A stretch of DNA of 41,660 bases from an uncultured Candidatus Saccharibacteria bacterium (GCA_964563965.1 CAZLZI010000001.1:1-41660); one strand, 5' to 3'; positions 2,723 through 26,138 are shown, numbered from the stretch's first letter. Notes: generated by a model not told the origin, from the sequence alone. Numbers and translations: made by a program.

Positions 2723-3296
2723 CGCCTAAACTAGCTAAAACTTGCTGGCGAATCTCCTCATCAGGAATTTGCACAAGTAAGCTATTAAAAAAACCAAGAA
2801 GAATCAGCTTTTTTGCTTCCTCATCGGATAACCCTCTGCTCTTGAGATAAAAAAGTTGAAGATTATCAATTCTCCCTGTAGTGGCGCCATGTGAGGCTTT
2901 AACATCATTGGCATCAATTTCTAACACAGGGCGTGATTCATTCTTTGTATTGTTGCCAAGCACTACCACATCATGTTCTAAATAGGAGGCTGTTTGTTGT
3001 GCTGCTTTTTTTATTATAATTCTCCCTTCAAAGGAAGAAAAGGAATCATCAAACAAAGCCCCTTTAACTTCAGTAGTACATGTTGTGTGAGGTACAGTGT
3101 GTATCGTTTCAACAATCAACTTTATAGGCGCCTCTTTTATACCTTTATATGCTGCAATAACTTTTGCTTCAACACCTTGTGTAGCTAGATATAGTTTCAA
3201 ATGCGCATCAACACTTCCAGTCATATCCAACACATAACACGTATCTGCTGTTACAGTTATTTCTGAAGTAGTTGGTTTTAAAAACACTGTTTGCAT
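2709..3296 (-). CDS. sufD: SufD-like protein, minimal (C-terminal beta-helix region only)
   Basis: 195 aa. PVLEIDANDVKASHGATTGRIDNLQLFYLKSRGL is the conserved SufB/D core. Sits between sufB and sufS. Confidence 0.7.
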   Translation of the reverse strand: MQTVFLKPTTSEITVTADTCYVLDMTGSVDAHLKLYLATQGVEAKVIAAYKGIKEAPIKLIVETIHTVPHTTCTTEVKGALFDDSFSSFEGRIIIKKAAQQTASYLEHDVVVLGNNTKNESRPVLEIDANDVKASHGATTGRIDNLQLFYLKSRGLSDEEAKKLILLGFFNSLLVQIPDEEIRQQVLASLGVDHV

Positions 3297-5752
3297 TAGC
3301 CAACAGATCCTTCCATTTCAAGCTCAATTAAGCGATTAAGTTCAACTGCATACTCAAGTGGAAGTTGTTTAACAATAGGTTCGATAAAACCTGACACTAT
3401 AAGGCTCATCGCTTGTGCTTCAGAGAGCCCCCTACTCATTAAGTAAAAGATCTTTTCTTCCCCAATCTTACTAACGGTTGCCTCATGTTCAATGTTAGCA
3501 TCACTATTTTCAATTTTCATAACTGGGTAAGTGTCTGAAGAAGAGTCTTCATCAAGTATTAACGCATCACACTCTACCCTGCTTTTAGCATTTGTTGCAG
3601 TAGGTATAACTGACACCAACCCTCTATAACTAGTTCTTCCACCATTGGCACTTACAGATTTTGCAACAATAAGAGATGTGGTATTAGGTGCAATGTGAAC
3701 CATTTTAGCTCCTGCATCTTGATGCTGGCCATGACCAGCGTAAGCAATTGATAGCAATTCCCCTCTCGCTCGATCTCCCACAAGATAACACGAAGGATAC
3801 TTCATGGTGATTCTACTATTATGAACAATGATGCCGTTTGCAACAAAATTCTGATCATTCTCCACTTCAAGGTCATATGTAATTTCATCTTCAAGACCTT
3901 CAAGAGAAACTACTCGTGAGAAAATACAAGGAGTTTCAAAACTCGTATTACCAAAAAATAAAAAGTAATGTGTATAAACTTTTTCCTCTGTACCCAGCTT
4001 CTTTTTTTCGCGACGAGTCCACTTTGAAATCTTTGTTGGGTTAAGACCACACATATACCCTAGTAGTCGCACCTGCTCAAGTAACTCTTTGCTCACGGAA
4101 GTAATAGAAACGTTTTTATGATTTTCTCTAAAATTACCATCAGCTGCAACATACCCCTCTATAAAAGCCACTTTTTCCATCATAGGTAGCTCAAATACCC
4201 AGTCTGGTATACGTTTTGAATGAGCATTCCCTTGCATAGAAAGGGATTTGAAAAACCTAACTAAATTTGATGAATTTATCTGGAGAACATTAAGCTTTAA
4301 TTTTGGCGCTACACCAAAAAGCTTTATAAATAATTCCTTTACACGGATGAACGATTTATCTGTCTCTGGCACTGCAATACACAACCTTGTTCCATCTACA
4401 AACCCATCTCCAATGTAAAACCCAAGCAACCACAATAGATCTGGTGAGGATTTTGCAGGGTGTTTTATTGGTCTACCTAACTTTGCATTTTCAAAGTCAA
4501 TATTTTTACTTACTCCTTTATCCGGGATCAATCCACTAACTGCAACGTGATCTCCGACTTCGATAGCGTTAAGTGGTAACCATGATAGCCTGCTAAACTT
4601 ACCTGTCTTTTTCCATACAAGTAGAGGGTGGTTTTCAGTGGCCCTTAATATTCGTTGGTTCAATGTCTTTATTTCATACACTTTACTAGGTTCGTTAGTC
4701 TTTATCGCGATTACTTTATTTGAAGCAAATTGCAGTTGTGAGTTAATACTCAGTACCTTATCTCCTATTTTAACTTCGCTAATTTTCTTAGTTCCATTCT
4801 CTAAGAGAACATCAGTATCTCCTGTGAGACATCCTAAATTACCATCGATCCACTCCATAACGCCATCCTCTTCAACTCGTGCTCTTTTTGTGACTAGGTT
4901 ATAAACATTTGATGACCAATTTTGAATTGTGGTATATCTACATCTTGCACCTTTTTTAACAATGACTTCAACAACTGCAGAGTGTAGAGAATCTGAAGAA
5001 TAAACTGGAGCAGAACAACCTTCAACATAAGATACTTCAGCTCCCTCATCTACAATTATGAGTGTTCTTTCAAATTGACCAAAGTTTTTAGCATTAATTC
5101 TAAAGTATGCTTGCAATGGTCTTGTTACTTTTACTCCCTTTGGTACATATACAAACGAACCACCAGACCACACTGCACTATTAAGGGCCGCGAACTTATT
5201 ATCACTGACAGGCACAACTTTTGAAAAATACTCTGTGAAAAACTCTGGATGTTTTTGCAATGCCTCATCCGTACCCATAAAAATCACCCCTTGTTCAGAT
5301 AGTTCTTCCATAAGAGAGCCATAGATTACCTCTGAATCAAATTGTGCTTTTACACCCGCCAAAAACTCTCGCTCTGCTTGGGGGACTCCTAGCCGTTCAA
5401 AAGTTGATTTCATTTGATCAGGGACATCATCCCAAGTTCTCTCAACATCTTGAATAGGTTTGAGATAATAATAAATGGCATCAAAATCGATGGCACTTAA
5501 ATCTGGACCCCATGTTGGCATTGGTTTTTCTAGAAAGGTTTTGTAAGCATTTAATCTAAACTTAAGCATCCATGCAGGTTCAGTCTTTAGTTGGGACAAC
5601 TGTCTGATTACTGTTTCAGAGAGTCCTTTTTCAGCTTTGAAGACAAATTCCTCTTTAACATTAAAGCCGTATTGAGTTGCATAGTTTGCGTTGATTGATA
5701 TTTTAGTGTCTTTAGTCTGCTTACCATCCGGCAGCATTTGCTTCTTACCCAT
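3296..5752 (-). CDS. sufB: SufB Fe-S assembly protein interrupted by an in-frame intein
   Basis: 818 aa. The extein parts align by eye with E. coli SufB (TKRA...GS..TWKYPSC...HQQDxGxKMxH...EHEATxSxIGE). Removing aa 308-645 leaves 480 aa. Confidence 0.9.
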   Translation of the reverse strand: MGKKQMLPDGKQTKDTKISINANYATQYGFNVKEEFVFKAEKGLSETVIRQLSQLKTEPAWMLKFRLNAYKTFLEKPMPTWGPDLSAIDFDAIYYYLKPIQDVERTWDDVPDQMKSTFERLGVPQAEREFLAGVKAQFDSEVIYGSLMEELSEQGVIFMGTDEALQKHPEFFTEYFSKVVPVSDNKFAALNSAVWSGGSFVYVPKGVKVTRPLQAYFRINAKNFGQFERTLIIVDEGAEVSYVEGCSAPVYSSDSLHSAVVEVIVKKGARCRYTTIQNWSSNVYNLVTKRARVEEDGVMEWIDGNLGCLTGDTDVLLENGTKKISEVKIGDKVLSINSQLQFASNKVIAIKTNEPSKVYEIKTLNQRILRATENHPLLVWKKTGKFSRLSWLPLNAIEVGDHVAVSGLIPDKGVSKNIDFENAKLGRPIKHPAKSSPDLLWLLGFYIGDGFVDGTRLCIAVPETDKSFIRVKELFIKLFGVAPKLKLNVLQINSSNLVRFFKSLSMQGNAHSKRIPDWVFELPMMEKVAFIEGYVAADGNFRENHKNVSITSVSKELLEQVRLLGYMCGLNPTKISKWTRREKKKLGTEEKVYTHYFLFFGNTSFETPCIFSRVVSLEGLEDEITYDLEVENDQNFVANGIIVHNSRITMKYPSCYLVGDRARGELLSIAYAGHGQHQDAGAKMVHIAPNTTSLIVAKSVSANGGRTSYRGLVSVIPTATNAKSRVECDALILDEDSSSDTYPVMKIENSDANIEHEATVSKIGEEKIFYLMSRGLSEAQAMSLIVSGFIEPIVKQLPLEYAVELNRLIELEMEGSVG
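3818..4831 (-). mobile_element. class 1 intein with LAGLIDADG homing endonuclease, inside sufB
   Basis: 338 aa. N-terminal Cys (GNLG/CLTGDTDVLL), block B TENH, LAGLIDADG motifs LLGFYIGDGFV and FIEGYVAADGNF, C-terminal NGIIVHN followed by +1 Ser. The junction codons were checked on the nucleotide sequence. Confidence 0.85.
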
Positions 5753-6812: not shown

Positions 6813-9800
6813 TTAGTTGTTACAGGAAGGCTTACCCACACTAAAAGAGCTTTCAGTACCCCAAATACCAATAAGTAACATAGGATTTATCCGGTATTTA
6901 CGAGCAGTATTAATAACTATATCCAGTTGGCCCTCTGGCGCACTTGCGAGGCTTGTTCCCCAATATTGGGGACTTTGCGCAAGTAGACGAGTTTTAAATT
7001 GAGCTCCATCGAGTCCTAACGGCCATCTATCAGTTTTCAAGCCACAATCAACTAACGCATCTCTGTAGTAATCAAATGTAGGGTTTCCTGGATTACGTAG
7101 AGGCTCTGAGGCAGAATACGCGGGGCATGCCATGTTTGCATCCTGTTTTCTAGGTGAGGATGGCGGGACTTTAGAACATGAGCGTCCTAATGAAGATAAT
7201 GAATCACGCGCGTAAGCATCAATAAATTCAGTTAAATTATGCGCAAACGGCATACCATTTACCTCGTTGTGACAATAAGGTCCATATTTATCTACAACAT
7301 ACCAAGTACCTTTACCAAGAACAATATGCGCATTCAATGCTCTAGCTGCACATTCAGCTGAACTCGCAAAATCAACAACACCAGAACCAAAACAGTTAAA
7401 AGCGTTACACACGTTTGGTGGTGTTGGTGTACCATCTGGATTCTCTGGTGTCCCCACCTGCTTTATAACCTCCATTGGAGGCAATATTCTCCCACCAGTT
7501 CTTGGGAGCCCCGTTGTATCATGGAAATCACTGGCTTTACAAACATAGTCTTGAAAATTGTTGAAAGAAACTACATGCCCAACTGTTGTCTCTTCGATCA
7601 GTTCTTTGTCTTTCTCCACACTAAGTCGCATACCAGGACCACAAGAATTTTTGTTTCCTACAAAAGAGAAATAGTCATACGTTTTTTCCAATGGTCCTCT
7701 TGCAGGCTCCGAGGTCTCATACGTATATTCTGCTATGGTAGTAACATCTCCCTCGCACCCTGAGCCAGTTGGCGTGCCATAACTTGTTGGGGGCGCATTC
7801 CTTAGCTCGTGTCCACAGATACCACCTGCTGGTGGGGTTTTCCCGCCACGGCACAGAGACGCATCACAAGCTGTATACCCTCCAGAGCCATCAGGTATCT
7901 TGCATGTATCTCTACATTCACATGGACTACTTCCACACAGCGGCGCAGGACTAGGACAGCCTCCAGGTTGCACATCTCCCCAACTGTATGCAAGACATTC
8001 ACCGCCATAATTAGCATTAGGTTTAGCGACACCAAATATTGATAATATAATTTTACTTACAAACCCTGCAATAGCTTGAGCAAGATTTACATCGTCACCA
8101 TAAAACTTTGTTAAATCATCTCTGTCATAAGCATACGAGTACCCTCCACTAAATGTGTTATATGGGATTTGCTCAATGTTTTCCACAATTCCTGGATATC
8201 TAATTTTATTAAATGGATTTTCACACCAACCATTGGCATGTTCTTTTGATGCACACAGACACAAGTTAACAACAGGGAAACCAACTCGTGTACATTCTCT
8301 GTCTTCGGTATCACTATATTTTTCTTTGTAATAGTATGTATCAAGGCCAGTTTCGACAAGTTGTGAATTGGGATCATTAGGCAGAGCCAAAAAGTTTGCA
8401 ATCCCCCCTTCTTGATAATTATTACAAATAGAACTACGGCCAGAGCCTGATTCAGCGCACTCACCAAGTCTTCTGGCTTGTGCAGCAGGATACTCTATCA
8501 TGGGTTTTGCAGAATAAGGCTTCTGTCCCGGATCGTCTTTTATTTTTATGTCTCTTTCATTACCATCCTCCACAAGTGCAGAGTCTTCAAAGTTTTCCGA
8601 AATACCCTTTTGAGCTGAGGCAGATATAGGGTTAAAGGTCAGCAAAAAACACGGATGCGGAAAATATTCTCGATTAAGTTTTCTGCCTGAATAGGAAATC
8701 CCCAACTCTTCAAACATAGTCTTATCACTCCAAGGGGTTTTTATCTGTCCTAAAAGTATTTCTTTCTTTTGGCCATTCTCTATTGATGTACAAACAGGAG
8801 TTTCAGGATTTGTTTTATAAGCATATTCAATCCACTTAAGAGGAGATGAAAAGAGGATAGGAATATTGTTTCCTGTAAGTTGGTTTCTATCAAGAATAGG
8901 GCCTTTATCATCAAAGATAGTGCCTGGATTTACTATAACTTTAGATGCCCAATGCCAGAAGCATGATGGTAATATCTTCTCATCATCCCCATCCATTCTA
9001 GGATTGGTATATTGCAAAAAGTTTCCACAAACACCAAAGGCTCTATTTGCTGTAGGTCTATGTTGATCAATACCGAAATCCGAGAATTCACCCACACCTG
9101 TAAACGCTTCTTCTTTTTTCTCGACCACAAAATCCTGTGGCATACATCGTAAAAACCCAGGTCCTGGGTTTGCAGGATCGCAGTTGGGATCAGGATTTGT
9201 TTTCCCATCAACATACATATCATCAACATCTTTTGCAGATAATATATCCAATGCAAATTCGTGCGGGTCATCAACTATAATATTACTTGCGTAAGTAATC
9301 TTTGGGTTTCCAGGAGGTGTTTCAAGACAAACAGAAAACTCTTCTCGATTCACATATTGTAATTCGTTTGGTAAACCTAATGGGGATGTCAGTAAATGAA
9401 GATTGGATCTCACACCTGCCGCATCCGTATCCTTTACCTCTCCAGCACAAATCATGTTTACATTTAAGTCAATTTTGCCGTCCGTGTCTTTGGTGAGGTC
9501 ACACTTATAAACGTCTTTAACACGTCCATTGCAAGAAAAAACTATAAAGTTTTCTTTCACATTCTTAGTAGCTTGAAGAGTCATTGTGTAATTGCCATTA
9601 CTAGAGGTACTGACTTCTTTAGCATTGTTAACTAGGTTACCGTTTTTCTGTTTACTGATAGTGCAGGGATCTCCACTATAGTTTGTAATAACAGAACCAT
9701 AGACAGGTAACCCTTCTACTTGAGAGGTCTTACCAGTTAGTTTGTTTGTATAGTCAACCCAAGATGCGTGTTTTATAAAACCAGACAGTGTTATAGGAGC

Positions 9801-11680: not shown

Positions 11681-11755
11681 TCCCCTGTAGCTCAGCGGCA
11701 GAGCAGGAAGCTGTTAACTTCAAGGTCGGTGGTTCGAATCCACCCGGGGGAGCCA
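11681..11755 (+). tRNA. tRNA-Asn, anticodon GUU, CCA encoded
   Basis: TCCCCTG TA GCTC AGCGGCA GAGC A GGAAG CTGTTAA CTTCA AGGTC GGTGG TTCGAAT CCACC CGGGGGA G CCA forms a 75-nt cloverleaf. It closely resembles E. coli tRNA-Asn. Confidence 0.92.
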
Positions 11756-11788
11756 AAGAATGCCCAACAAGGATGACTTCCGAACTGA

Positions 11789-11794
11789 TACAAT
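11789..11794 (+). promoter_or_regulatory. extended -10 box, leaderless geometry
   Basis: TGaTACAAT, then 6 nt, then GTG 11801. Confidence 0.5.
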
Positions 11795-11800
11795 CCAATA

Positions 11801-12529
11801 GTGAATCTAACAAAAAGTAAATTAGAAACAATGTTATCAACACATCCACTTGTTGTACCTCGCTTACAAACCCTTAAGCTAGCAGAACAACTCAACCCAA
11901 AATTCCATAAACCACACATTGTTGGAGGTTATTTACGTGACATTGCTTTAAATGCAAAGCCTAATGATTGTGATGTAGTGTTTCAAGGCTACCAACTTAA
12001 CCAGCCAGGTATAGTAGAAGCAGTTAGGGAAGCTGAAAAAAGACTTGGTATAGAACCGTACCCAGAATGGGATTTTGAAAACGCAATGGCAACGGGAATG
12101 TGTGATGATTTTGTTGAAAATACAATTGGAAAATACTCTCACCACACTGATTACCTGACAGTTTTGTTACTCGATACTGACGGCAGACTTTTTATTACTG
12201 AAGAGCAAACTGTCTCTGATATAGAAAATAAAGTTTATGATTTACGGTTTGCTGGTATAGAGGTATGGGCAACGCACAGAGGCGAAGGTCGAACTTACGC
12301 AAGCTGTATTGTAGGTGATCTCACAAGAGGTCTGTATTTATGCTCAAGATTAAATCTTAAACAGTCGGCCATTGTGACATTCTTGCTGCAGAATTTTGAT
12401 AGTTTCTTTGAACAACTAGAGGAAGCTGACCAACAAATGAGGAGAGCATACTGGAAAAAGAAAACAAAAGGAGCTCCTGAATACAAGCAGATACTTGATA
12501 AATTTAAAATTAAATCACTAACTGTTTAG
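11801..12529 (+). CDS. divergent nucleotidyltransferase with a PolyA_pol/CCA-adding-enzyme-like head domain
   Basis: HIVGGYLRDIALNAKPNDCDVVF matches the GGxVRDxxLGxxxxDxD head motif. It is short (242 aa) and the RDFTIN-type motif is degenerate (DYLTV). Confidence 0.45.
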   Translation: MNLTKSKLETMLSTHPLVVPRLQTLKLAEQLNPKFHKPHIVGGYLRDIALNAKPNDCDVVFQGYQLNQPGIVEAVREAEKRLGIEPYPEWDFENAMATGMCDDFVENTIGKYSHHTDYLTVLLLDTDGRLFITEEQTVSDIENKVYDLRFAGIEVWATHRGEGRTYASCIVGDLTRGLYLCSRLNLKQSAIVTFLLQNFDSFFEQLEEADQQMRRAYWKKKTKGAPEYKQILDKFKIKSLTV

Positions 12530-12538
12530 TTTCTATAG

Positions 12539-12577
12539 GTTCCAAACTCATCCCATTTTGCGAGCCAAATAAACATT
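12539..12577 (+). repeat. cassette-boundary repeat, copy a
   Basis: GTTCCAAACTCATCCCATTTTGCGAGCCAAATAAACATT. Intergenic, 10 nt after the NTase TAG stop. Confidence 0.85.
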
Positions 12578-12611
12578 ACCTAAATTTCCTACTATCCTTT
12601 AACATTTAATT

Positions 12612-12617
12612 TATAAT
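12612..12617 (+). promoter_or_regulatory. -10 box, leaderless geometry
   Basis: TATAAT, then 6 nt, then ATG 12624. Confidence 0.5.
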
Positions 12618-12623
12618 AACTAT

Positions 12624-13409
12624 ATGGAACTCCTTACTGTGGACTATGAAAGGTTTAAAAATCAGTTGCGCTCTCCTCACCCTGCCTATTTGACACTCGT
12701 ATTTAGTTTTATATTTACAACTTTTCTATATAAGTACTTATACTTTTTCTTATACGCCATCTTTGCTAAATTTTGGAACTTACCCACTCCGGCTCACAAC
12801 GGAAATCTTGCAATTAACTATAAGGTATTTCTTTTTTTTACAATTGCTCTTTTAGCCTTGTTTTATATCTGGTACTTCACAAAAAAGTATTCAAAAGCAC
12901 TAGGTAACGAGGTTAAACTAAATAAGGCGATATTATCTAAAGCGTTAAATTGCTCATTGCCCCTAGTAGTTTACTATATTTGGAAGTTCTTAAATTTTGC
13001 CCCATATATTGTTGAGCAAAAACCAGCAAGAAAATTTGCAATATCAAATTATGCTTGGGAACCCTTTGGCTGGGGTACCGAACCACTTGGAGTTATATTA
13101 GCAAGTTTTACAATTCTTTTCTTTCCGGTAGTAGAAGAGATATTTTTATCACTTCTATTCATTAAGTTAGCCAAGAAGACCAAAGTCACAGTTGCTTTAG
13201 TTTTGGCTGCTCTGATATTTGCAGCATTACACATCCCAACATACGGACTAGGGAATAATGTTTTCTTTCTCTTTTTAGCGGGGCTATCTAGCATAACAGC
13301 AAGACTTTGGACGGGTACTTGGAAGGGCGGATTAGTAGTACATATACTAGTAAACGTATCAATTTTTTTACCAAAATGGTTTGTATTCACGAGTTTGTTC
13401 TTTCTCTAA
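12624..13409 (+). CDS. CPBP-family (CAAX/Abi) intramembrane metalloprotease
   Basis: Polytopic protein with VVEEIFLS (EExxxR-like), FAALH and HILVN motifs in the CPBP order. Confidence 0.7.
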   Translation: MELLTVDYERFKNQLRSPHPAYLTLVFSFIFTTFLYKYLYFFLYAIFAKFWNLPTPAHNGNLAINYKVFLFFTIALLALFYIWYFTKKYSKALGNEVKLNKAILSKALNCSLPLVVYYIWKFLNFAPYIVEQKPARKFAISNYAWEPFGWGTEPLGVILASFTILFFPVVEEIFLSLLFIKLAKKTKVTVALVLAALIFAALHIPTYGLGNNVFFLFLAGLSSITARLWTGTWKGGLVVHILVNVSIFLPKWFVFTSLFFL

Positions 13410-13441
13410 GTGCAAAGTTGCAAAAATATAGTACTTTCGAT

Positions 13442-13470
13442 GTTCCAAACGCATTCCACGTCGCGAGCCA
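13442..13470 (+). repeat. cassette-boundary repeat, copy b
   Basis: GTTCCAAACGCATTCCACGTCGCGAGCCA. Intergenic. Confidence 0.8.
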
Positions 13471-13605
13471 TGGAATAGTGCGAGTACTTGGCTTTGTGAC
13501 TATCGATTATATTGCATAAACTTTTCCTGCACTATTTCTAATCTTTAGGGTAAAATAACACTTTTATATTACTAAATAACACACTATACTACACAATGTA
13601 ATAGT

Positions 13606-14154
13606 ATGTACATGAACGCGCGCTTAGGATTATTAATATTATTTGCAGAGTCCATACCATCCTTAGGTATATTGCTCGCTAAAGCATCACTATCTATCAC
13701 ATCTCAAGATTTAGTCTTTGTACCGGTAATTATTTTAAATATTTTATACATCATCGTAAGCTGGAGACGCAATATAATTGAATTAGATAGCGGTATTCTA
13801 AGGATTTTCTCCAACATCAGCTTTATCGACTCACGTAGGAACTCCACATGGCACCCTCTAACTTCAAGAAACCGAACAATCAGCATCGCTGACATTTCTG
13901 AAATAAAAGTTATCACAACAACTCCATTAATAGCAACACGTACTCACCTAGATGAAATTAACTGGAGGGACAGGGTGGAAATAAATTACAGACAGGGTAA
14001 TCAATTACAAACTGCTGTGATAGAATTGTACTTGTTTCCTAGAACTAAAACGATTTTAAAAGAAATTGTTAAGTTACAACCCCTTATAAAAGTTACTTTT
14101 GAAAAACTTAACGGTATGCAAAATGTTACTCAGAAGCCGAATCCTGAGTATTAA
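13606..14154 (+). CDS. hypothetical membrane protein
   Basis: 182-aa ORF with two N-terminal hydrophobic helices and no recognised motif. ATG 13612 is an alternative start (TGtAATAGT, then 6 nt, then ATG). Confidence 0.4.
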   Translation: MYMNARLGLLILFAESIPSLGILLAKASLSITSQDLVFVPVIILNILYIIVSWRRNIIELDSGILRIFSNISFIDSRRNSTWHPLTSRNRTISIADISEIKVITTTPLIATRTHLDEINWRDRVEINYRQGNQLQTAVIELYLFPRTKTILKEIVKLQPLIKVTFEKLNGMQNVTQKPNPEY

Positions 14155-14204
14155 AGTTTTTCACTGAAAGATTAGTGGAGCTTTTTTCATTTATTCAACA
14201 TTCT

Positions 14205-14237
14205 TTCTAAACAGATCTCACCTCGCGACACAACAAA
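14205..14237 (+). repeat. cassette-boundary repeat, copy c (degenerate)
   Basis: TTCTAAACAGATCTCACCTCGCGACACAACAAA. It keeps the xCxAAAC, CACCTCGCGA and CAAC parts of the consensus. Confidence 0.5.
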
Positions 14238-14272
14238 TTCCATCAAAGATCTGATAGTGACTAAATTTAACA

Positions 14273-14626
14273 CTATTTTAATGTTGAAGACACAGACTCT
14301 ATATAATCTTTTAAGACGTTAATATCCTCAGTGGCTACTTTCCATACTTCTTCCCAGTCTATTTCTGCATAATCGTGTGTTACTTTATCGCGCATACCTG
14401 CAATTTGTTTCCATGGAACATCTGGAAATGCACTTTTTAGTTCATCAGAGACTTTTTTAGCAGCTTCACCGATTACAATAATATTTCGCAGCACTGCATC
14501 TTGATAAAGACCACTGCTCTGAATAAACTCTTCTTTCTCTGGAGCATCTTGCATATAAGTTTCTATAGCATTTATAGCTTGTAGAATGTCTTCGAGGTAA
14601 GGACGGTTGTCTTTATCTTTTCTCAT
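14273..14626 (-). CDS. hepT: HepT-like (DUF86) ribonuclease toxin
   Basis: RX4HXY motif MRDKVTHDY. 117 aa. Overlaps the upstream MNT gene by 14 nt. Confidence 0.85.
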   Translation of the reverse strand: MRKDKDNRPYLEDILQAINAIETYMQDAPEKEEFIQSSGLYQDAVLRNIIVIGEAAKKVSDELKSAFPDVPWKQIAGMRDKVTHDYAEIDWEEVWKVATEDINVLKDYIESVSSTLK

Positions 14627-14909
14627 AAATAGGTCTTAAATCCTTTAAAACATGTGGGGAAATGTACTTGTTAAGTGATTTTCTTTGTACTAAATCTACC
14701 TTTTTGTTATTAAAAAGTACCTCTGAAAAATTCTGTTCTATTCCAACATGTTGAAATAAGCTTGGGGTTTCTGAAAACTCTACTAGAAGGTCTATATCAC
14801 TGCTTGAATCAGCTTCACCTCTGGCATACGAACCAAAGAGTCCCAAAAAGTTTATGTTGTATTGTTCGCATAACCGATCAAGTTTTGCTTTATCATATTG
14901 CAGTTGCAT
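14613..14909 (-). CDS. mntA: MntA-type minimal nucleotidyltransferase antitoxin
   Basis: GSYARGEADSSSDIDLLV (GSxxRG...DxD) motif. 98 aa. Confidence 0.85.
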   Translation of the reverse strand: MQLQYDKAKLDRLCEQYNINFLGLFGSYARGEADSSSDIDLLVEFSETPSLFQHVGIEQNFSEVLFNNKKVDLVQRKSLNKYISPHVLKDLRPIYEKR

Positions 14910-14915
14910 AGGGTA

Positions 14916-14921
14916 ATTATA
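14916..14921 (-). promoter_or_regulatory. -10 box, leaderless geometry
   Basis: TATAAT on the reverse strand, then 6 nt, then ATG 14909. Confidence 0.55.
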
Positions 14922-14995
14922 CTAAAACTGAGTCAAAACTTCTATGAATCACTGATTATTGAACGTGAGGCTAATTTTTATATGTAACTCCAAAA

Positions 14996-15029
14996 GTTCC
15001 AAACTCATACCACCTCGCGAGCCAAACTC
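14996..15029 (+). repeat. cassette-boundary repeat, copy d
   Basis: GTTCCAAACTCATACCACCTCGCGAGCCAAACTC. Intergenic once the NUDIX start is set at 15058. Confidence 0.85.
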
Positions 15030-15045
15030 TTTTTATTCGAAATGT

Positions 15046-15051
15046 TACAAT
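15046..15051 (+). promoter_or_regulatory. extended -10 box, leaderless geometry
   Basis: TGtTACAAT, then 6 nt, then ATG 15058. Confidence 0.55.
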
Positions 15052-15057
15052 CAACAC

Positions 15058-15492
15058 ATGGTGTCAGAAATGCACAAAGTTATAGTTAAGGGTTGGGTAG
15101 AAAAAGACGGAAAATATCTTCTTGCTAAAAGAGGGTCTACTGAAAAACATCATGCAGGAGTTTGGTCGTTGCCAGGAGGTAATATAGAGTCTGAAGTTGA
15201 GGAAGCAATACTCGAAAAATCTCTTCAAAGAGAAATAGAAGAAGAGGTTGGAATAAAAGTACACGACGAGATGGACATCATATACAACAACGGTTTTGTT
15301 AAAACTAGCGATGGATCTCATGTTATCAATATTACTTTTTTATGTAGATGGAAGTCGGGACAAGAAAAACCACTTGAAGATACTCAAGAATTGGTATGGT
15401 ATTCAATCAAAGAACTCGAGTCTCTCAATAACCTACCGGATTTTTTGGAAAGAGAGATTAGCCACCTCAGAAAACATTTGGAACGATATTAG
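15058..15492 (+). CDS. NUDIX hydrolase (start revised from 14959)
   Basis: Nudix box LPGGN...REIEEEVGI, with slightly non-canonical spacing. The ORF-track TTG start would read through repeat copy d. Confidence 0.8.
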   Translation: MVSEMHKVIVKGWVEKDGKYLLAKRGSTEKHHAGVWSLPGGNIESEVEEAILEKSLQREIEEEVGIKVHDEMDIIYNNGFVKTSDGSHVINITFLCRWKSGQEKPLEDTQELVWYSIKELESLNNLPDFLEREISHLRKHLERY

Positions 15493-15529
15493 TTCCAAAC
15501 CCTTCCACCTAGCGAGCCAAATAAACATT
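15492..15529 (+). repeat. cassette-boundary repeat, copy e
   Basis: GTTCCAAACCCTTCCACCTAGCGAGCCAAATAAACATT. Its first G is the last base of the NUDIX TAG stop. Confidence 0.85.
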
Positions 15530-15552
15530 CTAATCAAAGACGTTACACATCT

Positions 15553-16683
15553 CTAGCTGAACACAAAATCACTAAAATTTCCTGGGTGCACCACCATATA
15601 CTGAGAATTTTTGTATTCTTGCCAGCTTTGTGGAGCACGTCCTATACTTTTCTTCCATTTAAACTCATATCCATAAAGTTTTGTATCTCTGTCTTCTACT
15701 AGGTCAACCTCACTACTATCGTAAGTTCTCCAAAAATACTGCTTTGCATAAATTTTGTTGTATTCTCGATATTTCATTCTTTCAACCATTAGAAAGTTTT
15801 CCCAAAGTTGACCAACATCAGTTCTAAGACTAACGGGGTTAAAGTTGTCAATAATTGTGTTTCTGATACCTAAATCGAAAAAAAAGATTTTTTTGTTTTT
15901 ACTTACTTCTCTGCGTTTATTTGTTGAGTACGTTGATAATCGAAAAACTACAAAGGATTTTTCTAATAAATTAATATACCTTTCCACGGTTTTGTAATCT
16001 AATCCTAGTTGAGAACCAAGTTCCGAATACGAAACTTCTGAGCCAATCTGAAGTGCTATTAACTGCAAAAGTTTTCCTAAAACTTCTGGATTTCTTATGT
16101 CTTGAAATTCCAAAATATCCTTATATAAATAGCTCGTAGATAATTCTCGCAGCAGACGTATTTTATCTTCCGCGGCTACAGTTTTTACAACTTCAGGATA
16201 AAATCCAAAAATTAAATTACTTTCATAGCCTTTTAATAAAGCACTTTGATCCTCATAAATTTCCTGTAAGGACAATGGAAACATGTAATATGTGAATTTT
16301 CTACCTGTTAAAGGCTCGCTAGTAAAATCGAGTAAATTTATGCTGGATGAGCCGGTGGCAACTATCTGCTTTTTATCTTTGTAGTTATCCACTAACAATT
16401 TTATTACAAGCCCTATAGAAACCAAACGTTGCGCCTCGTCTATTAGTATTATGTCTGTGTTAGCAAACAGTCGGTCTAGATCTTCAAAGTTAACATTTGT
16501 AAGGCTGTCCAAATCTCCTGCATTATCCAAGTTTAGGTACTTAATGGTATATTTATTTGCCAAATTGGCCTGGACTTCTTGAATTAAGGTAGTCTTACCT
16601 ACCTGCCTAGCACCTACCAAAATAATGGCTTTTCCTTTAAAAAAGTCTTGTTGTATGGGTTGTTTAAGCTTTCTTGTTAACAT
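15553..16683 (-). CDS. AAA+ ATPase of the COG1373 type (AAA_14 + DUF4143-like)
   Basis: Walker A GARQVGKTT and Walker B IILIDEAQ. 376 aa with the typical architecture. Confidence 0.75.
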   Translation of the reverse strand: MLTRKLKQPIQQDFFKGKAIILVGARQVGKTTLIQEVQANLANKYTIKYLNLDNAGDLDSLTNVNFEDLDRLFANTDIILIDEAQRLVSIGLVIKLLVDNYKDKKQIVATGSSSINLLDFTSEPLTGRKFTYYMFPLSLQEIYEDQSALLKGYESNLIFGFYPEVVKTVAAEDKIRLLRELSTSYLYKDILEFQDIRNPEVLGKLLQLIALQIGSEVSYSELGSQLGLDYKTVERYINLLEKSFVVFRLSTYSTNKRREVSKNKKIFFFDLGIRNTIIDNFNPVSLRTDVGQLWENFLMVERMKYREYNKIYAKQYFWRTYDSSEVDLVEDRDTKLYGYEFKWKKSIGRAPQSWQEYKNSQYMVVHPGNFSDFVFS

Positions 16684-16689
16684 ACAGGT

Positions 16690-16695
16690 ATCATA
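16690..16695 (-). promoter_or_regulatory. -10 box, leaderless geometry
   Basis: TATGAT on the reverse strand, then 6 nt, then ATG 16683. Confidence 0.5.
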
Positions 16696-16747
16696 TACTA
16701 CAAATACGCGTAATTCAAGGATTATCTATCTGGACTCTGATTTAAGC

Positions 16748-16777
16748 GTTCCAAACTCATCCAATTGCGAGAGCCAA
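16748..16777 (+). repeat. cassette-boundary repeat, copy f
   Basis: GTTCCAAACTCATCCAATTGCGAGAGCCAA. It ends one base before the GNAT stop codon (16778-16780). Confidence 0.8.
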
Positions 16778-17266
16778 TTATTCTAGATGCTTTTCCATTA
16801 TCAATGTATGTTCACCTGCTTTTCTTACAAATTTAAATCCTAGATCTGTATACAGCTTTATAGCTGGGGTTTGGGCTCCCTTCACCCAAAGCTTCATCAC
16901 CTTAATTTTATTGGATTGCTTAACTTCATTGACTAGGAAATTCAATAGCGATTTACCTACTCCTAAACTTCTAAAGTTTTTACTAACATATGCCCCATGA
17001 ACTACAGCAACATAAGCAGGCTGGCTTTCCTCACCAAATGTTAAATTCATTACTCCAACAATTTCGTGCTCAATCTGAGCAAACGCAAAGAGGGAATTTT
17101 TGCTAGTAAGTTGTTCCTCCCAATACTTATCAGGGTATTTAGACACTTCTTCAAACTTTGAGTTAAAAGCTTGTGGTTCATCTTGTAACGACTCAAGTCT
17201 TATTTTCCTATATTTTTGCCAATCAGCTGGTATTAGTTGAATAATAGTGATGTGATTTTTTATCAT
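16778..17266 (-). CDS. GNAT-family N-acetyltransferase
   Basis: Motif A FRSLGVGKSLL. 162 aa. Confidence 0.85.
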   Translation of the reverse strand: MIKNHITIIQLIPADWQKYRKIRLESLQDEPQAFNSKFEEVSKYPDKYWEEQLTSKNSLFAFAQIEHEIVGVMNLTFGEESQPAYVAVVHGAYVSKNFRSLGVGKSLLNFLVNEVKQSNKIKVMKLWVKGAQTPAIKLYTDLGFKFVRKAGEHTLIMEKHLE

Positions 17267-17298: not shown

Positions 17299-18600
17299 TC
17301 ATTGCTCTTTTGCTACAGCGCTTAAAGTATTCAAAACTAACTCAGGTACATATAAAAACTGTGTCTTTTTGTAACCGTTTCTAATTAACGCATCTTTAAC
17401 ATTCTTTGATAACACTACTGGAATATAATCATCTATTTTTCTCGAAAGTGTCTGCTGTTCAGTTTGATCTTCAAAGATATCGTACCCTATGGTTAAGATT
17501 CCCTTCACTTTAGGATTATACTTATAACCCAGTGAAGCAAGCCTTTCATAAAATCTCTCTTTGTATTCTTTTATTCCATCTTTAGTCGCTCTAAAGACTA
17601 TCTTTCGTCCTTGCCCTATTTCAATAATCTTGTTAATTACTATGTCTGATGGATCTAGCAGAGTTACATTTTCGTATCTATCACTAATAGACTGAAGGGT
17701 GATAATGTCCTCACTCATTTCTATAACTGTAGTTTCATCTTCAGAATACACAGCACTTTTATGATACCTATCACCTATTATTACTATTCGTTTGGGAGTG
17801 ATTTGTATTTCTTTTTCAGCATTTCTAATATTTGTACAAATAATATCCAGTTTATGCGGGGATAAATCATAATCATTTTCCCCCGGCAAAAATATGGAAT
17901 TATCTTTTACAGGAAAGAAGATGTACTCTCCTGCGCTACCCCCATCGCATCTTTTAAGAACATCCTTGAGATCATCAAAGGATGTTGAAATATCATAATA
18001 GTTCCATATATAAGTATAATTTGGTTTGGCTTGGGAAACTGTTACTGCAGTATTAGGATTGTGATTAAGTACAAACTGCATCCCAATGTAATCACCTTTC
18101 CCAACAAAAACAAGAGAATGCCCTTTCTGCATTTTAAGGTTTAATGATCCTTGTTGAATGTTTTTAAGCAGTGTAGTTTGAGCAAACAAAACTTTTTCAA
18201 GCCAAGTTCTGTTTTCAATTTTATCTATTAAAGATTTTAACCCTACAATTCCAAATGAATAGAAAATGATATTAGGTAGATGATATAAAATATTTTGCTG
18301 ATCTACTGGTTCTCCGATAAGATCCCACAGGTAATTAATACCCAACAGAACTCTAGGTGTTAAATTACTCCACGAAGGAAGCTGTCGAACTAATTGGGCT
18401 ACCATCTCAGGGTAAATTGCAAACAACGCACCTACTAGCAAAGAACAAGGTATTGCAAGCCGCCTTAACCATGTAAGTATAGTTGAACTTTCATCGGGCT
18501 TTTGAAAAGTTAGTAAAGACGAGATCTCATCGGGAGTGATTTCTGTGTTTTTAGTAATCTTTTGGGCTGTAGCAACAAGGGTCTTTTTTACATGATTCAT
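17299..18600 (-). CDS. hypothetical membrane-associated protein (orphan)
   Basis: Long clean ORF with N-terminal hydrophobic segments. ATG 18600 is preferred over 18651 because a TATAAT box lies at 18616-18611. No motif recognised. Confidence 0.5.
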   Translation of the reverse strand: MNHVKKTLVATAQKITKNTEITPDEISSLLTFQKPDESSTILTWLRRLAIPCSLLVGALFAIYPEMVAQLVRQLPSWSNLTPRVLLGINYLWDLIGEPVDQQNILYHLPNIIFYSFGIVGLKSLIDKIENRTWLEKVLFAQTTLLKNIQQGSLNLKMQKGHSLVFVGKGDYIGMQFVLNHNPNTAVTVSQAKPNYTYIWNYYDISTSFDDLKDVLKRCDGGSAGEYIFFPVKDNSIFLPGENDYDLSPHKLDIICTNIRNAEKEIQITPKRIVIIGDRYHKSAVYSEDETTVIEMSEDIITLQSISDRYENVTLLDPSDIVINKIIEIGQGRKIVFRATKDGIKEYKERFYERLASLGYKYNPKVKGILTIGYDIFEDQTEQQTLSRKIDDYIPVVLSKNVKDALIRNGYKKTQFLYVPELVLNTLSAVAKEQ

Positions 18601-18743
18601 ATTTAGGTAGATTATACAGTAGCGTAAACTGCACACATAATTTAGAGGCATTTAGGTGCCCACTTCCTAGGTCGTTCATTTATTCCCTCTTAGGAAAAGC
18701 AGCTAAGGGGAGAAACGGTGAAGTTGGTATGGACTTCTAAATG

Positions 18744-19241
18744 TTAGAATATATTTAAAAGAAGTTTCTTAAAATTGATAAAGAACTGAGAAAACATATT
18801 ATTATCAACAATAGGTTGGGTTAATATCTCCACACTGTATAACCTTGTTTGGCTACCAAACTCATCCCCTGTTGAATTAACTAAGCCTTTAATTCTCATT
18901 CCCGTCTTTAAAACAAGAGGTTCGGTATCGTAATAGCTTACCCCATCACTCTCAATATATGATTTGTATCCTGCATCGCATTCAATAGTATCAAAATCTA
19001 CATCCTCATAGGTGTAAATGCTTGTAACTTGTAGGCTAATCTTTTTCACTCCGACTTTGTTGTTAATGGCTACTATTTCACCTTCAATACCACATACTGG
19101 GGCGGGAGGCATTGGCGATGCAAAGGTACTTTTTGCAATGGTCAGAAACATGCATAGGAAAGCAAGTGTACTTATGAGTTTACTTAGCATACTTAATGAA
19201 AGTGTATCATTTGGGAGCAAACGTAACCATTGGAATTTCAT
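18744..19241 (-). CDS. hypothetical secreted/anchored protein
   Basis: 165 aa with an N-terminal hydrophobic segment. Confidence 0.4.
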   Translation of the reverse strand: MKFQWLRLLPNDTLSLSMLSKLISTLAFLCMFLTIAKSTFASPMPPAPVCGIEGEIVAINNKVGVKKISLQVTSIYTYEDVDFDTIECDAGYKSYIESDGVSYYDTEPLVLKTGMRIKGLVNSTGDEFGSQTRLYSVEILTQPIVDNNMFSQFFINFKKLLLNIF

Positions 19242-25062: not shown

Positions 25063-25506
25063 ATGCAAAAGTTAATCAAACGAAAAGGAAATGAGTGGTT
25101 TAGAAGATATGCTCCCGCTGAATTAGCTGGAACTATAGGAACATTGACCTGCGGGATTGTTACACATAATTTACTTAACAATGCCGTATTAACAGCACTC
25201 GCTGCTACGTGGGGTGAAAACTTAGGCTACTATTCATGGATAATTTATGCGGAGTATAAAGCCGTTAGTCTTAAGAATAAACACCGAAAAAAGCTGTATT
25301 TTTTCTCTATATTTAAAAATGTCATTATAGAATTCGGACCTGGGGAAATACTCGATAGTTCTGTGATAAGACCTTTTGTAATGTATGTGTGCTCAACAGT
25401 AATTCAGAACTTAGCATTAGGTTTACTAATAGGTAAATTAGTTGCGGATATTATTTTTTATAGCTTAACAATCAGTATCTTTGAGCTTAGGAAGAAACGC
25501 TTTTAA
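25063..25506 (+). CDS. hypothetical membrane protein
   Basis: 147 aa with 3-4 hydrophobic helices. Confidence 0.4.
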   Translation: MQKLIKRKGNEWFRRYAPAELAGTIGTLTCGIVTHNLLNNAVLTALAATWGENLGYYSWIIYAEYKAVSLKNKHRKKLYFFSIFKNVIIEFGPGEILDSSVIRPFVMYVCSTVIQNLALGLLIGKLVADIIFYSLTISIFELRKKRF

Positions 25507-26138
25507 CTTGTCATGCTTAAAATAGATAGGAAGTGTAAAAACACTTCGCGATTGTAAGCCGCAGAATTACTATCGAGCTTTATATAAATGCAGTTTGGAT
25601 CAAAAAGATTTGGATCAATAACTGAAAATTTATTTCTAAATTTTTCCTCAAATTCGTCCAGAGATAGCCTGTGCGCCTTTAATTTAAATCTATTATCTAT
25701 TCTTCTCGCTGCTTCTTCTTCAGATATTGTTAACTCGATTATTATGGGGAGTATATCAGGTGAAACTAACTCTCTAATATTTTCAAGTGTCAGATTGATT
25801 CCATCCACATTTGACCAAGGTTGCGCCCAGATCACAGCCTTACCTGCTTTAAGAGCTTCAACACATTTGTAAGTATGAAATCTATAATATTGACGCTCAA
25901 TAGGTAGTGTTGCAAAGCTCATGTCCTCGTATACACGTTGTTGAACATACTCATCAAACTCTGCTGGTTGTGTATGGGTTATATCAGGATCAATCAACAC
26001 GAATTCAAACGCATGTTGTACGGATTCTATTAAAGTGGATTTCCCGCTACCTGGTTGTCCTCGCACAATTATGAATGTGTTTTCGGGCAATGATTCTGTT
26101 TCCTGGATAGGTTTCTCAACAACAGACTTAACTGGCAT
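25503..26138 (-). CDS. P-loop NTPase / kinase-like protein (AAA_33-like)
   Basis: Walker A GQPGSGKST followed by LIDPD. 211 aa. Confidence 0.6.
   Translation of the reverse strand: MPVKSVVEKPIQETESLPENTFIIVRGQPGSGKSTLIESVQHAFEFVLIDPDITHTQPAEFDEYVQQRVYEDMSFATLPIERQYYRFHTYKCVEALKAGKAVIWAQPWSNVDGINLTLENIRELVSPDILPIIIELTISEEEAARRIDNRFKLKAHRLSLDEFEEKFRNKFSVIDPNLFDPNCIYIKLDSNSAAYNREVFLHFLSILSMTS

Follow-up and report, generated by a model that had tools for sequence, protein, structure and literature searches.

Results

The DNA analysed here is a 41,660-nucleotide stretch, called the window below, from an uncultured Candidatus Saccharibacteria bacterium (GCA_964563965.1, CAZLZI010000001.1:1-41660), and the subject of this report is an array of short direct repeats that follows a tRNA-Asn gene in it. 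The tRNA-Asn(GTT) gene was located at 11681-11755 on the plus strand by ARAGORN and Rfam, and on its 3' side a 29-nt motif with the consensus GTTCYAAACTCATCCCACCTCGCGAGCCA occurs six times, always on the plus strand, splitting the ~5 kb beyond the gene into intervals that each hold a single unit. The copies are designated sites a (12539-12567), b (13442-13470), c (14204-14232), d (14996-15024), e (15492-15519) and f (16748-16776), f being the last recognisable repeat. Site e is 28 nt long, one base less than the others, and site c is degenerate, with GACACA at its end, whereas GCCA is constant across all the other sites. The chance expectation for matches to the motif in pattern searches was 0, and an nhmmer profile made from the copies and run with filters off at E ≤ 10 gave exactly six matches in the window. 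A possible seventh copy at 18845 was rejected; it lies within an open reading frame (ORF) and was missed by the profile search. The longest contiguous identity between the repeat and the tRNA is 6 bp, GAGCCA, which is present at the 3' end of the tRNA and in the repeats.

The units are described here together with the sites that close them, all in plus-strand coordinates. Unit 1 with site a (11756-12567) begins AAGAATGCCCAAC, its site sequence closes ...TTTTGCGAGCCA, and it holds a nucleotidyltransferase-like (NTase) gene at 11831-12529 (+) with a weak Pfam match to PolyA_pol; this is the slot that varies in the population. Unit 2 with site b (12568-13470) starts with AATAAACATTACC directly after the GAGCCA of site a and encodes an Rce1/CPBP-type membrane protease (12624-13409, +), and unit 3 with the degenerate site c (13471-14232) encodes a 182-aa protein without an assigned function (13606-14154, +). 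Unit 4 with site d (14233-15024) contains the genes of a HepT toxin (14273-14626, −) and an MntA antitoxin (14613-14909, −), for which the Pfam matches were HepT-like and Polbeta/NTP_transf_2. Unit 5 with site e (15025-15519) carries a NUDIX hydrolase gene (15070-15492, +), and unit 6 with site f (15520-16776) an AAA_14/DUF4143 ATPase gene (15553-16683, −). The distal flank of the array is a GNAT acetyltransferase gene (16778-17266, −), beyond which there is no site and which is invariant in every conspecific contig. The units are 0.5-1.3 kb in size, and the intergenic spaces are 30-130 nt. The first base of site e is the G of the NUDIX TAG stop, and site f ends one base short of the GNAT stop codon.

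A preliminary description of the window, made from its sequence, had listed six same-strand copies local to this region, one transcription unit in each interval followed by the GNAT gene, tight boundaries at site e and site f, and a constant repeat orientation despite varying gene orientation. The present searches and the Pfam assignments agree with it on all these points, half of the units having the motif upstream or antisense. Its statement that most units carry their own −10 box was not borne out by a sigma-70 consensus scan, which found 13 sites against 19.9 expected, the units not being enriched in promoters of their own.

Variation at the locus within the species was followed in conspecific contigs found through proteins identical to the DUF1189 protein encoded upstream of the tRNA and to the HepT, ATPase, NTase and GNAT proteins. 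Some 30 contigs of the window's species were obtained, from metagenomes of wastewater and other origin; cited below by L numbers, as are the other loci, they showed 99.4-100% identity to the window upstream of the tRNA. In L001, L004 and L109, identity to the window is lost immediately 3' of ...GGGGGAGCCA, the point at which L002 and L007 stop. In L109, which is 99.96% identical to the window, the tRNA (...GGGGGAGCCA) is followed by a 1.47-kb unit that encodes a 408-aa protein and ends in the site variant GTTCTAGACTCATCCCACTTTGTGAGCCA, after which the sequence is identical to the window from AATAAACATTACC. Because L109 regains identity to the window at AATAAACATTACC, after its own site, the repeat belongs to the 3' end of the upstream unit. 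The 408-aa cassette replaces unit 1 in L004, L109, L115 and L116, and a large serine recombinase (LSR) element stands in place of unit 1 in L001. To the left of the 408-aa unit lies the tRNA in L004 and L109 (...GGGGGAGCCA followed by AGAGCATTTAAAG) and the site of a different unit in L111 (...CCACCTAAAGAGCCA followed by AGAGCATTTAAAG), the junction between site and 408-aa unit in L111 being ..CCTAAAGAGCCA followed by AGAGCATTT. Since GAGCCA is the sole left sequence shared by the 408-aa unit in L111 and in L004/L109, the crossover lies inside these six bases. No homology link was found between the upstream unit of L111 and LSR elements. In one wastewater sample (ERZ965348/SRR2135036), the NTase unit (L140), the 408-aa unit (L109) and the LSR element (L001) coexist in the first slot, and the distal part of the array, from the CPBP gene through the ATPase and GNAT genes, is the same in all conspecific contigs. 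The variation is precise, affects whole units and is concentrated beside the tRNA.

Syntenic loci in related species, with a core-gene nucleotide identity of ~66-78%, were reached through DUF1189 homologues and have the order Suf operon, 1288-aa protein, DUF1189 and tRNA-Asn. Species with ~77% core identity have tRNA-anchored same-strand arrays as in the window; in L124-L127, the 10 kb that follow the tRNA contain at least seven sites, all on one strand, and the 10 kb that precede it contain 0. Three cassettes of the window (ATPase, HepT/MntA and 183-aa) are found in L124 in a changed order with their orientation relative to the sites kept. The ATPase unit, sixth in the window, is the first after the tRNA in L124, with 84.6% nucleotide identity as against ~77% for the core; the HepT/MntA homologue lies at 13144-13785 of L124 and the homologue of unit 3 at 16645-17237, in another position of the array. 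Two further arm families share the terminal GAGCCA with the window's arms, designated type A, namely, type B (...AAGGGGAGCCA) and type C (...CTAACATCYTCYGCTATGTAGAGCCA), and the type A and type C arms align in register at 16 of 29 positions.

The motif was also sought more widely. A scan of 185,579 genomes gave 98 stretches, nearly all of them lone chance matches in unrelated phyla, and a metagenome scan gave four matches, among which L121 alone looks genuine, a Joint Genome Institute (JGI) contig with a single 290-aa ORF between two type A sites. Scans of viral contigs gave no match to either the repeat or the 3' end of the tRNA. The motif is locus-specific and tied to unit boundaries, and is not a dispersed element of the repetitive extragenic palindromic (REP) type; that class, including bacterial interspersed mosaic elements, was rejected because every copy in the window lies within 12539-16776, the relatives have none on the upstream side of the tRNA and no hairpin was found.

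The type B repeat of L124 is ~75 nt long, ends ...ATTCGTGTACYATRCAYYAAGGGGAGCCA and is present in two copies (~12650-12725 and ~16540-16615); its 3' part is closer to the real tRNA-Asn acceptor end than type A is, and a minihelix-like hairpin is possible in it. An arm related to type B closes a five-gene unit in L128 (~14380-14407).

LSR genes were found directly after the same tRNA-Asn, on the opposite strand, in L133 (GCA_964606045.1), L135, L137/L138 and L139, with two tandem LSR elements each in L135 and L139. The encoded proteins have Resolvase, Recombinase and zinc-ribbon (Zn_ribbon_recom) domains, and their closest solved homologue is SPbeta integrase. The C-terminal tail WLPRVDSNHRP in L133 and L001, up to and including the stop, is the antisense of the tRNA-Asn 3' end, the Trp codon TGG corresponding to CCA, and the tail WLLR with its stop in L137 is likewise the antisense of the 3' end of its tRNA, the acceptor stem of which differs. 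Because such tails, of the ..WL..DSN.. type, are present in 33 of the 120 best LSR homologues, targeting of the tRNA 3' end is a trait of the family. Furthermore, a 98%-identical LSR, with 5.1 kb of its element at 92% identity, is found at the tRNA-Asn of two species whose core genes are ~66% identical, indicating horizontal movement.

The final 4-12 codons of the LSR are borrowed from the tRNA antisense (6517-6552 in L133, 10959-10994 in L001 and the equivalents in L137/L139). In the excised form, the tail would come from the attP arm, type A antisense reading WLA[RK]W[DY]EFGT, and therefore the C-terminus of the LSR would differ between the integrated and excised states.

LSR elements and small cassettes also stand side by side. 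The L133 array is mixed, consisting, after the tRNA, of a 7.5-kb LSR element with a type C arm, a 1.7-kb cassette with a SocA/ParE-like toxin-antitoxin pair and a type A arm, and a 0.67-kb NUDIX cassette with a type C arm; the type C arm of the LSR element is kept in L137 amid otherwise unrelated cargo. L001, which belongs to the species of the window (99.97% identity upstream), has in the same position the C-terminal 177 residues only of an LSR, 70.6% identical to P0046 of L139; this fragment aligns to LSRs but has no Pfam match of its own. A target-proximal LSR is thus present in relatives (L133, L135 with two, L137/L138 and L139 with two), as a domain-less fragment in L001 and not in the window, and same-orientation repeats with recombinase-less units are present in the window (six units), in the mixed array of L133 and in L124 (at least seven sites).

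A comparison of the repeats with the tRNA was made at the level of half-sites. Aligned without gaps, the inner 20 nt of type A match the tRNA 3' end at 13 of 20 positions and, outside the core, at 7 of 14, a value reached or exceeded by 2.6% of the 14-mers of the window. A position weight matrix (PWM) of the distal 9-mer, GTTCYARAC, finds its best match in the T-loop of the tRNA (GTTCGAATC), and only 0.05% of the 9-mers of the window score as high; this 9-mer starts 29 nt from the end in the repeats versus 24 nt in the tRNA. Between the attP and attB sites of serine integrases, the contacts of the recombinase domain are in the same register, and the zinc-ribbon-domain motif of ~9 bp lies 5 bp closer to the centre in attB than in attP (Rutherford et al. 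2013, PMC3783163). Because the 5-bp shift found here matches that relation, the tRNA end, whose last ~24 nt (GTTCGAATCCACCCGGGGGAGCCA) we read as an attB-type arm, looks like an attB left arm and the repeats look like attP left arms. The likeness is to the sites of the Listeria innocua prophage integrase (A118 family), in which the inner register is shared and the ~9-bp motif lies 5 bp inward in attB, as in the tRNA compared with the repeat; the differences are that the pattern is seen here in the left arms only and that the distal motif lies a few bp further from the core.

Canonical LSR att sites consist of two quasi-symmetric half-sites, bound by a dimer, on either side of a 2-bp crossover identical in both partners. 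An inverted copy of the distal motif, AAGGATGACTTCCGAAC (reverse complement GTTCGGAAGTCATCCTT), at 11769-11785 (+), at positions +14 to +30 from the tRNA, is a candidate for the right, P'-type arm of the tRNA-proximal site. The reverse-complement PWM score for the inverted arm 3' of the tRNA was 8.7 in the window (above the 99th percentile of the background), 11.5 in L131 and 7.1 in L128, and the right inverted motif at +14 to +30 was recognisable only after the tRNA in these three.

Units 2 and 6 open, right after the core, with the same 10 nt, AATAAACATT (12568-12577 and 15520-15529), although their genes are unrelated and opposite in orientation; this common start may be what is left of a right arm common to both.

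Discussion

We consider it probable that the repeats are attachment-site arms left by serial insertions of small cassettes at tRNA-Asn by a family of LSRs, and the 3' end of tRNA-Asn is best read as an attB-type site of an LSR family common in Patescibacteria. In the mechanism that we propose, an LSR would recombine the tRNA end, at its GAGCCA core, with the core carried by a circular unit, so that the newcomer would be placed directly after the tRNA, with its attP-type arm as the distal end of the unit. Earlier units would be shifted outward, and the result would be the tRNA followed by one unit with its site after another, in one orientation whatever the directions of the genes. The six recombinase-less units of the window would be small cis- or trans-mobilisable cassettes that rely on the LSR of a larger element of the same family, and such an element may be the one seen in a conspecific strain (L001). 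In this they would be counterparts of the Dehalococcoides ssrA islands that lack an integrase and of pseudo-SCC elements, both discussed below. We infer that an LSR acts on the type A sites and that small units may move alone, excise as circles and be mobilised in trans; the same applies to the exact crossover dinucleotide, a shared dinucleotide within GCCA being possible.

Several points weigh against this reading. Pfam scans of all sizeable ORFs found no recombinase domain in the window, so that no LSR is present in the 41.6 kb, as the preliminary description had also stated, and tblastn with the LSRs found no remnants in the array, its sole match in the window being the tRNA-antisense tail. 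A search with the L001 fragment for a full-length conspecific LSR gave no match. The mapped LSR element (L133/L137) ends in a type C arm and not in the type A arm of the window. The right flanks other than those noted above are A/T-rich, and an inverted arm was not detected in them. In addition, canonical serine integrases are not known to recombine attP with attL- or attR-like sites; because of the canonical rule of attP with attB, repeated insertion at an occupied tRNA needs a relaxed pairing, as reported for Ccr, or another route.

Other explanations were weighed against the same evidence. It is conceivable, but in our judgement unlikely, that the units are decayed full-size LSR elements in which the recombinase end was deleted and the distal gene and attR arm were left. 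Full-size LSR elements do insert at tRNA-Asn, in tandem in L135 and L139, the P' arm is not recognisable in most units, the distal part of the array shows no variation in the population, and the exact left junction of the 408-aa unit in two contexts is explained equally well by a fresh insertion at the tRNA. However, decay of this kind needs all six of the six units to have been trimmed exactly to the core on the tRNA side, with spacers of 30-130 nt, and tblastn found no fragments of recombinase pseudogenes in the array. Contigs with 99.96% identity differ in having the NTase or the 408-aa unit in the same slot, which leaves too short a time for independent decay, and small cassettes retain their arms across species at differing positions. 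A recombinase other than an LSR, encoded elsewhere in the genome (tyrosine, Xer-type or integron-like), could instead shuffle the cassettes, with the LSR elements merely sharing the hotspot, and we regard this as improbable. In its favour, no enzyme is directly linked to the type A sites, tyrosine integrases classically target tRNA 3' ends, the one-armed sites are unlike both canonical LSR sites and dif sites, and in L135, a distant relative, an Xer-like tyrosine recombinase is encoded ~8 kb upstream. On the other hand, the window and the loci of close relatives yielded no tyrosine recombinase, the repeats, with only 6 contiguous bp shared, are not duplicated pieces of the tRNA as in tyrosine-integrase islands, and neither an attC-like fold nor a dif-like dyad is present. 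The in-register alignment (16/29) of type A with type C, the arm found at the boundary of an LSR element, the alternation of both in one array and the 5-bp shift geometry, which is specific to serine integrases, also favour serine recombinases.

We find it very hard to credit a third explanation, that the motif is an RNA or regulatory signal at transcript ends, such as tRNA-like 3' processing, a terminator or a REP-type element, even though conserved T-loop residues are present in it (GTTCYARAC), it has CCA at its end, it adjoins stop codons and a minihelix-like hairpin is conceivable for the ~75-nt variant of L124. The sites keep one orientation while the genes vary in theirs, so that for half of the units the motif lies upstream or antisense. 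A T-stem/acceptor-stem partner is not conserved, the stems found being at chance level, folding z-scores were ~0 on both strands, and there was no Rfam match. Neither the remaining 36 kb of the window nor, in any of the relatives, the 10 kb on the upstream side of the tRNA contains the motif, and the presence/absence breaks of the units fall exactly at it. As for particular candidates of this kind, Rfam found two tRNAs alone in the window, and a conserved stem of the repeat with the upstream sequence in single-stranded form was rejected, the 7-10-bp stems lying at varying positions and being expected by chance.

The array resembles an integron in function alone. One 3' site to each single-gene unit, uniform site orientation, variation at the anchor-proximal slot and a cargo rich in toxin-antitoxin, GNAT and NUDIX genes are common to both, and entry next to the anchor and discrete one-site units were observed here; in contrast to integrons, the genes are in both orientations, the anchor is a tRNA and there is no IntI. 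As integron attC sites the repeats were rejected: for 16 sites the mean folding z-score was ~0 on both strands, no inverted arm is present to the right of the sites, the sites are 29 nt as against 55-140 bp, the core is GAGCCA and not GTTRRRY, and R''-L''...L'-R' symmetry is lacking. No Phage_integrase domain was found in the window, and the neighbours of the tRNA encode the DUF1189 protein and the secreted Cys-rich 1288-aa protein. The latter was considered as a hidden recombinase and rejected; it is secreted and Cys-rich and has no Pfam, NCBIfam or PDB match. Tyrosine-integrase tRNA islands (Islander), which lie between the intact tRNA and a displaced copy of its 3' segment that is nearly identical, do not fit either, GAGCCA being the only contiguous sequence shared here, the distance from the T-loop motif to the end being 5 nt longer in the repeats and no tyrosine integrase being present. 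The dif site is a 28-bp site with two 11-bp inverted arms and a 6-bp spacer, and such sites often alternate in orientation. Xer/dif modules (integrative mobile elements exploiting Xer and pdif modules) were rejected, because the internal dyad and the inverted arm are absent and all sites have one orientation.

The closest described system is the family of ssrA genomic islands (ssrA-GI) of Dehalococcoides, in which the ORF of the LSR DsiB overlaps attL, tandem islands are bounded by repeats of the 3' end of the transfer-messenger RNA (tmRNA) gene, about half of the islands, read as cis-mobilisable, are devoid of an integration module, and a further conserved motif, which does not align with the target gene, lies beside the repeat (PMC3146451). 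Both systems have tandem units after one small-RNA gene with same-strand repeats related to its 3' end, an LSR at the attL end whose ORF runs into the RNA gene, recombinase-less units and an extra conserved motif next to the repeat. They differ in target, which is tRNA-Asn here and tmRNA there, and in the place of the crossover, which is the GAGCCA at the extreme 3' end here and the T-loop there; the contiguous identity between repeat and target is 6 bp here versus 20 there; the units here are single genes of 0.5-1.3 kb versus islands of ~10 kb; the host here belongs to the Patescibacteria, or candidate phyla radiation (CPR); and a second, small serine recombinase of the DsiA/CcrA type is not seen here. 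The staphylococcal cassette chromosome elements (SCC/SCCmec) likewise insert serially at the 3' end of a single conserved gene, rlmH (orfX), and depend on the LSRs CcrAB and CcrC; direct repeats of the integration site lie between the units, pseudo-SCC units have no ccr, and pairing beside an occupied site is relaxed. SCC differs in its protein-coding target, units of tens of kb, firmicute host and paired recombinases, and the relatedness of its enzymes to the LSRs here extends, on the present evidence, to the shared family domains. In the tycheposon islands of Prochlorococcus, elements already present are pushed outward by successive integrations at a tRNA gene, each island is strewn with degenerate remnants and partial att repeats, and LSRs are a minority, tyrosine recombinases being found in 910 of 937 elements (Hackl et al., bioRxiv 10.1101/2020.12.28.424599). 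These islands differ from the present array in their partial-tRNA repeats, replication modules and cargo of several kb.

The literature searched contained no direct description of an integron-like tRNA array or of LSRs in Patescibacteria. The architecture itself, with tandem units, a recombinase ORF over attL and recombinase-less units, is already described for ssrA islands and SCC; what is new is the target at the extreme tRNA-Asn 3' end, the Patescibacteria host, the very short identity between target and repeat and, above all, the single-gene size of the units. The preliminary description had set the array apart from integrons, in agreement with the absence of an attC-like fold, of inverted arms and of a tyrosine recombinase, and had offered two interpretations. 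The footprint of serial insertions at tRNA-Asn was upheld by the whole-unit differences and GAGCCA junctions in the conspecific contigs and by the shuffled cassettes in relatives. An undescribed cassette-capture system was upheld in part, since the single-gene unit size is unusual, whereas the architecture is known and the likely enzyme class is LSR.

A more far-reaching form of the LSR reading, which we advance tentatively and rate as possible but doubtful, is that the array is a serine-recombinase-driven analogue of an integron, in which single-gene circles of 0.5-1.5 kb, with one 29-bp attP-type arm each, would be captured and reshuffled at tRNA-Asn by an LSR acting in trans. If true, it would be a dedicated gene-capture platform for Patescibacteria with reduced genomes, using another enzyme family and a tRNA anchor, and the mobilisation of small units by a serine recombinase would represent convergent integron-like gene capture on another catalytic scaffold. 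If the units are merely decayed scars, the locus would be a tRNA island of the usual kind whose remnants are exceptionally neat. The genomes of Patescibacteria (CPR) are tiny, and how these bacteria acquire genes is little understood; the locus is a strain-variable hotspot at which defence, toxin-antitoxin and housekeeping-accessory genes are stacked singly at a tRNA. A family of serine integrases that targets tRNA 3' ends, with readable attB and attP arms, is also relevant to genome engineering.

Other observations in the window

Next to the array, the gene of a 450-aa protein (17299-18651, −) with a hydrophobic N-terminal region and no family match is 90% identical at the nucleotide level to 14482-15810 of L129, where the core identity is ~78% and the neighbouring genes differ; this gene may likewise be a unit that moves horizontally, one that has no recognisable site. 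Upstream of the locus, the gene of the secreted Cys-rich 1288-aa protein, which is kept in all relatives, contains a G+C peak of 0.46 at 7001-8000, compared with ~0.36-0.39 elsewhere. The SufB gene (3296-5752, −), encoding 818 aa, includes a Hint/LAGLIDADG intein that is lacking in the close relatives L124 and L131 (475-476 aa), and an intein is present in the distant L135 (856 aa). A tRNA-Ile with the anticodon TAT (UAU), an uncommon isoacceptor in bacteria, lies at 113-188 (−) and has the same place in L124, L131 and L135. Outside the array, a gene for a zeta-toxin/AAA_33-like kinase (25503-26138, −) adjoins a histidine phosphatase gene.

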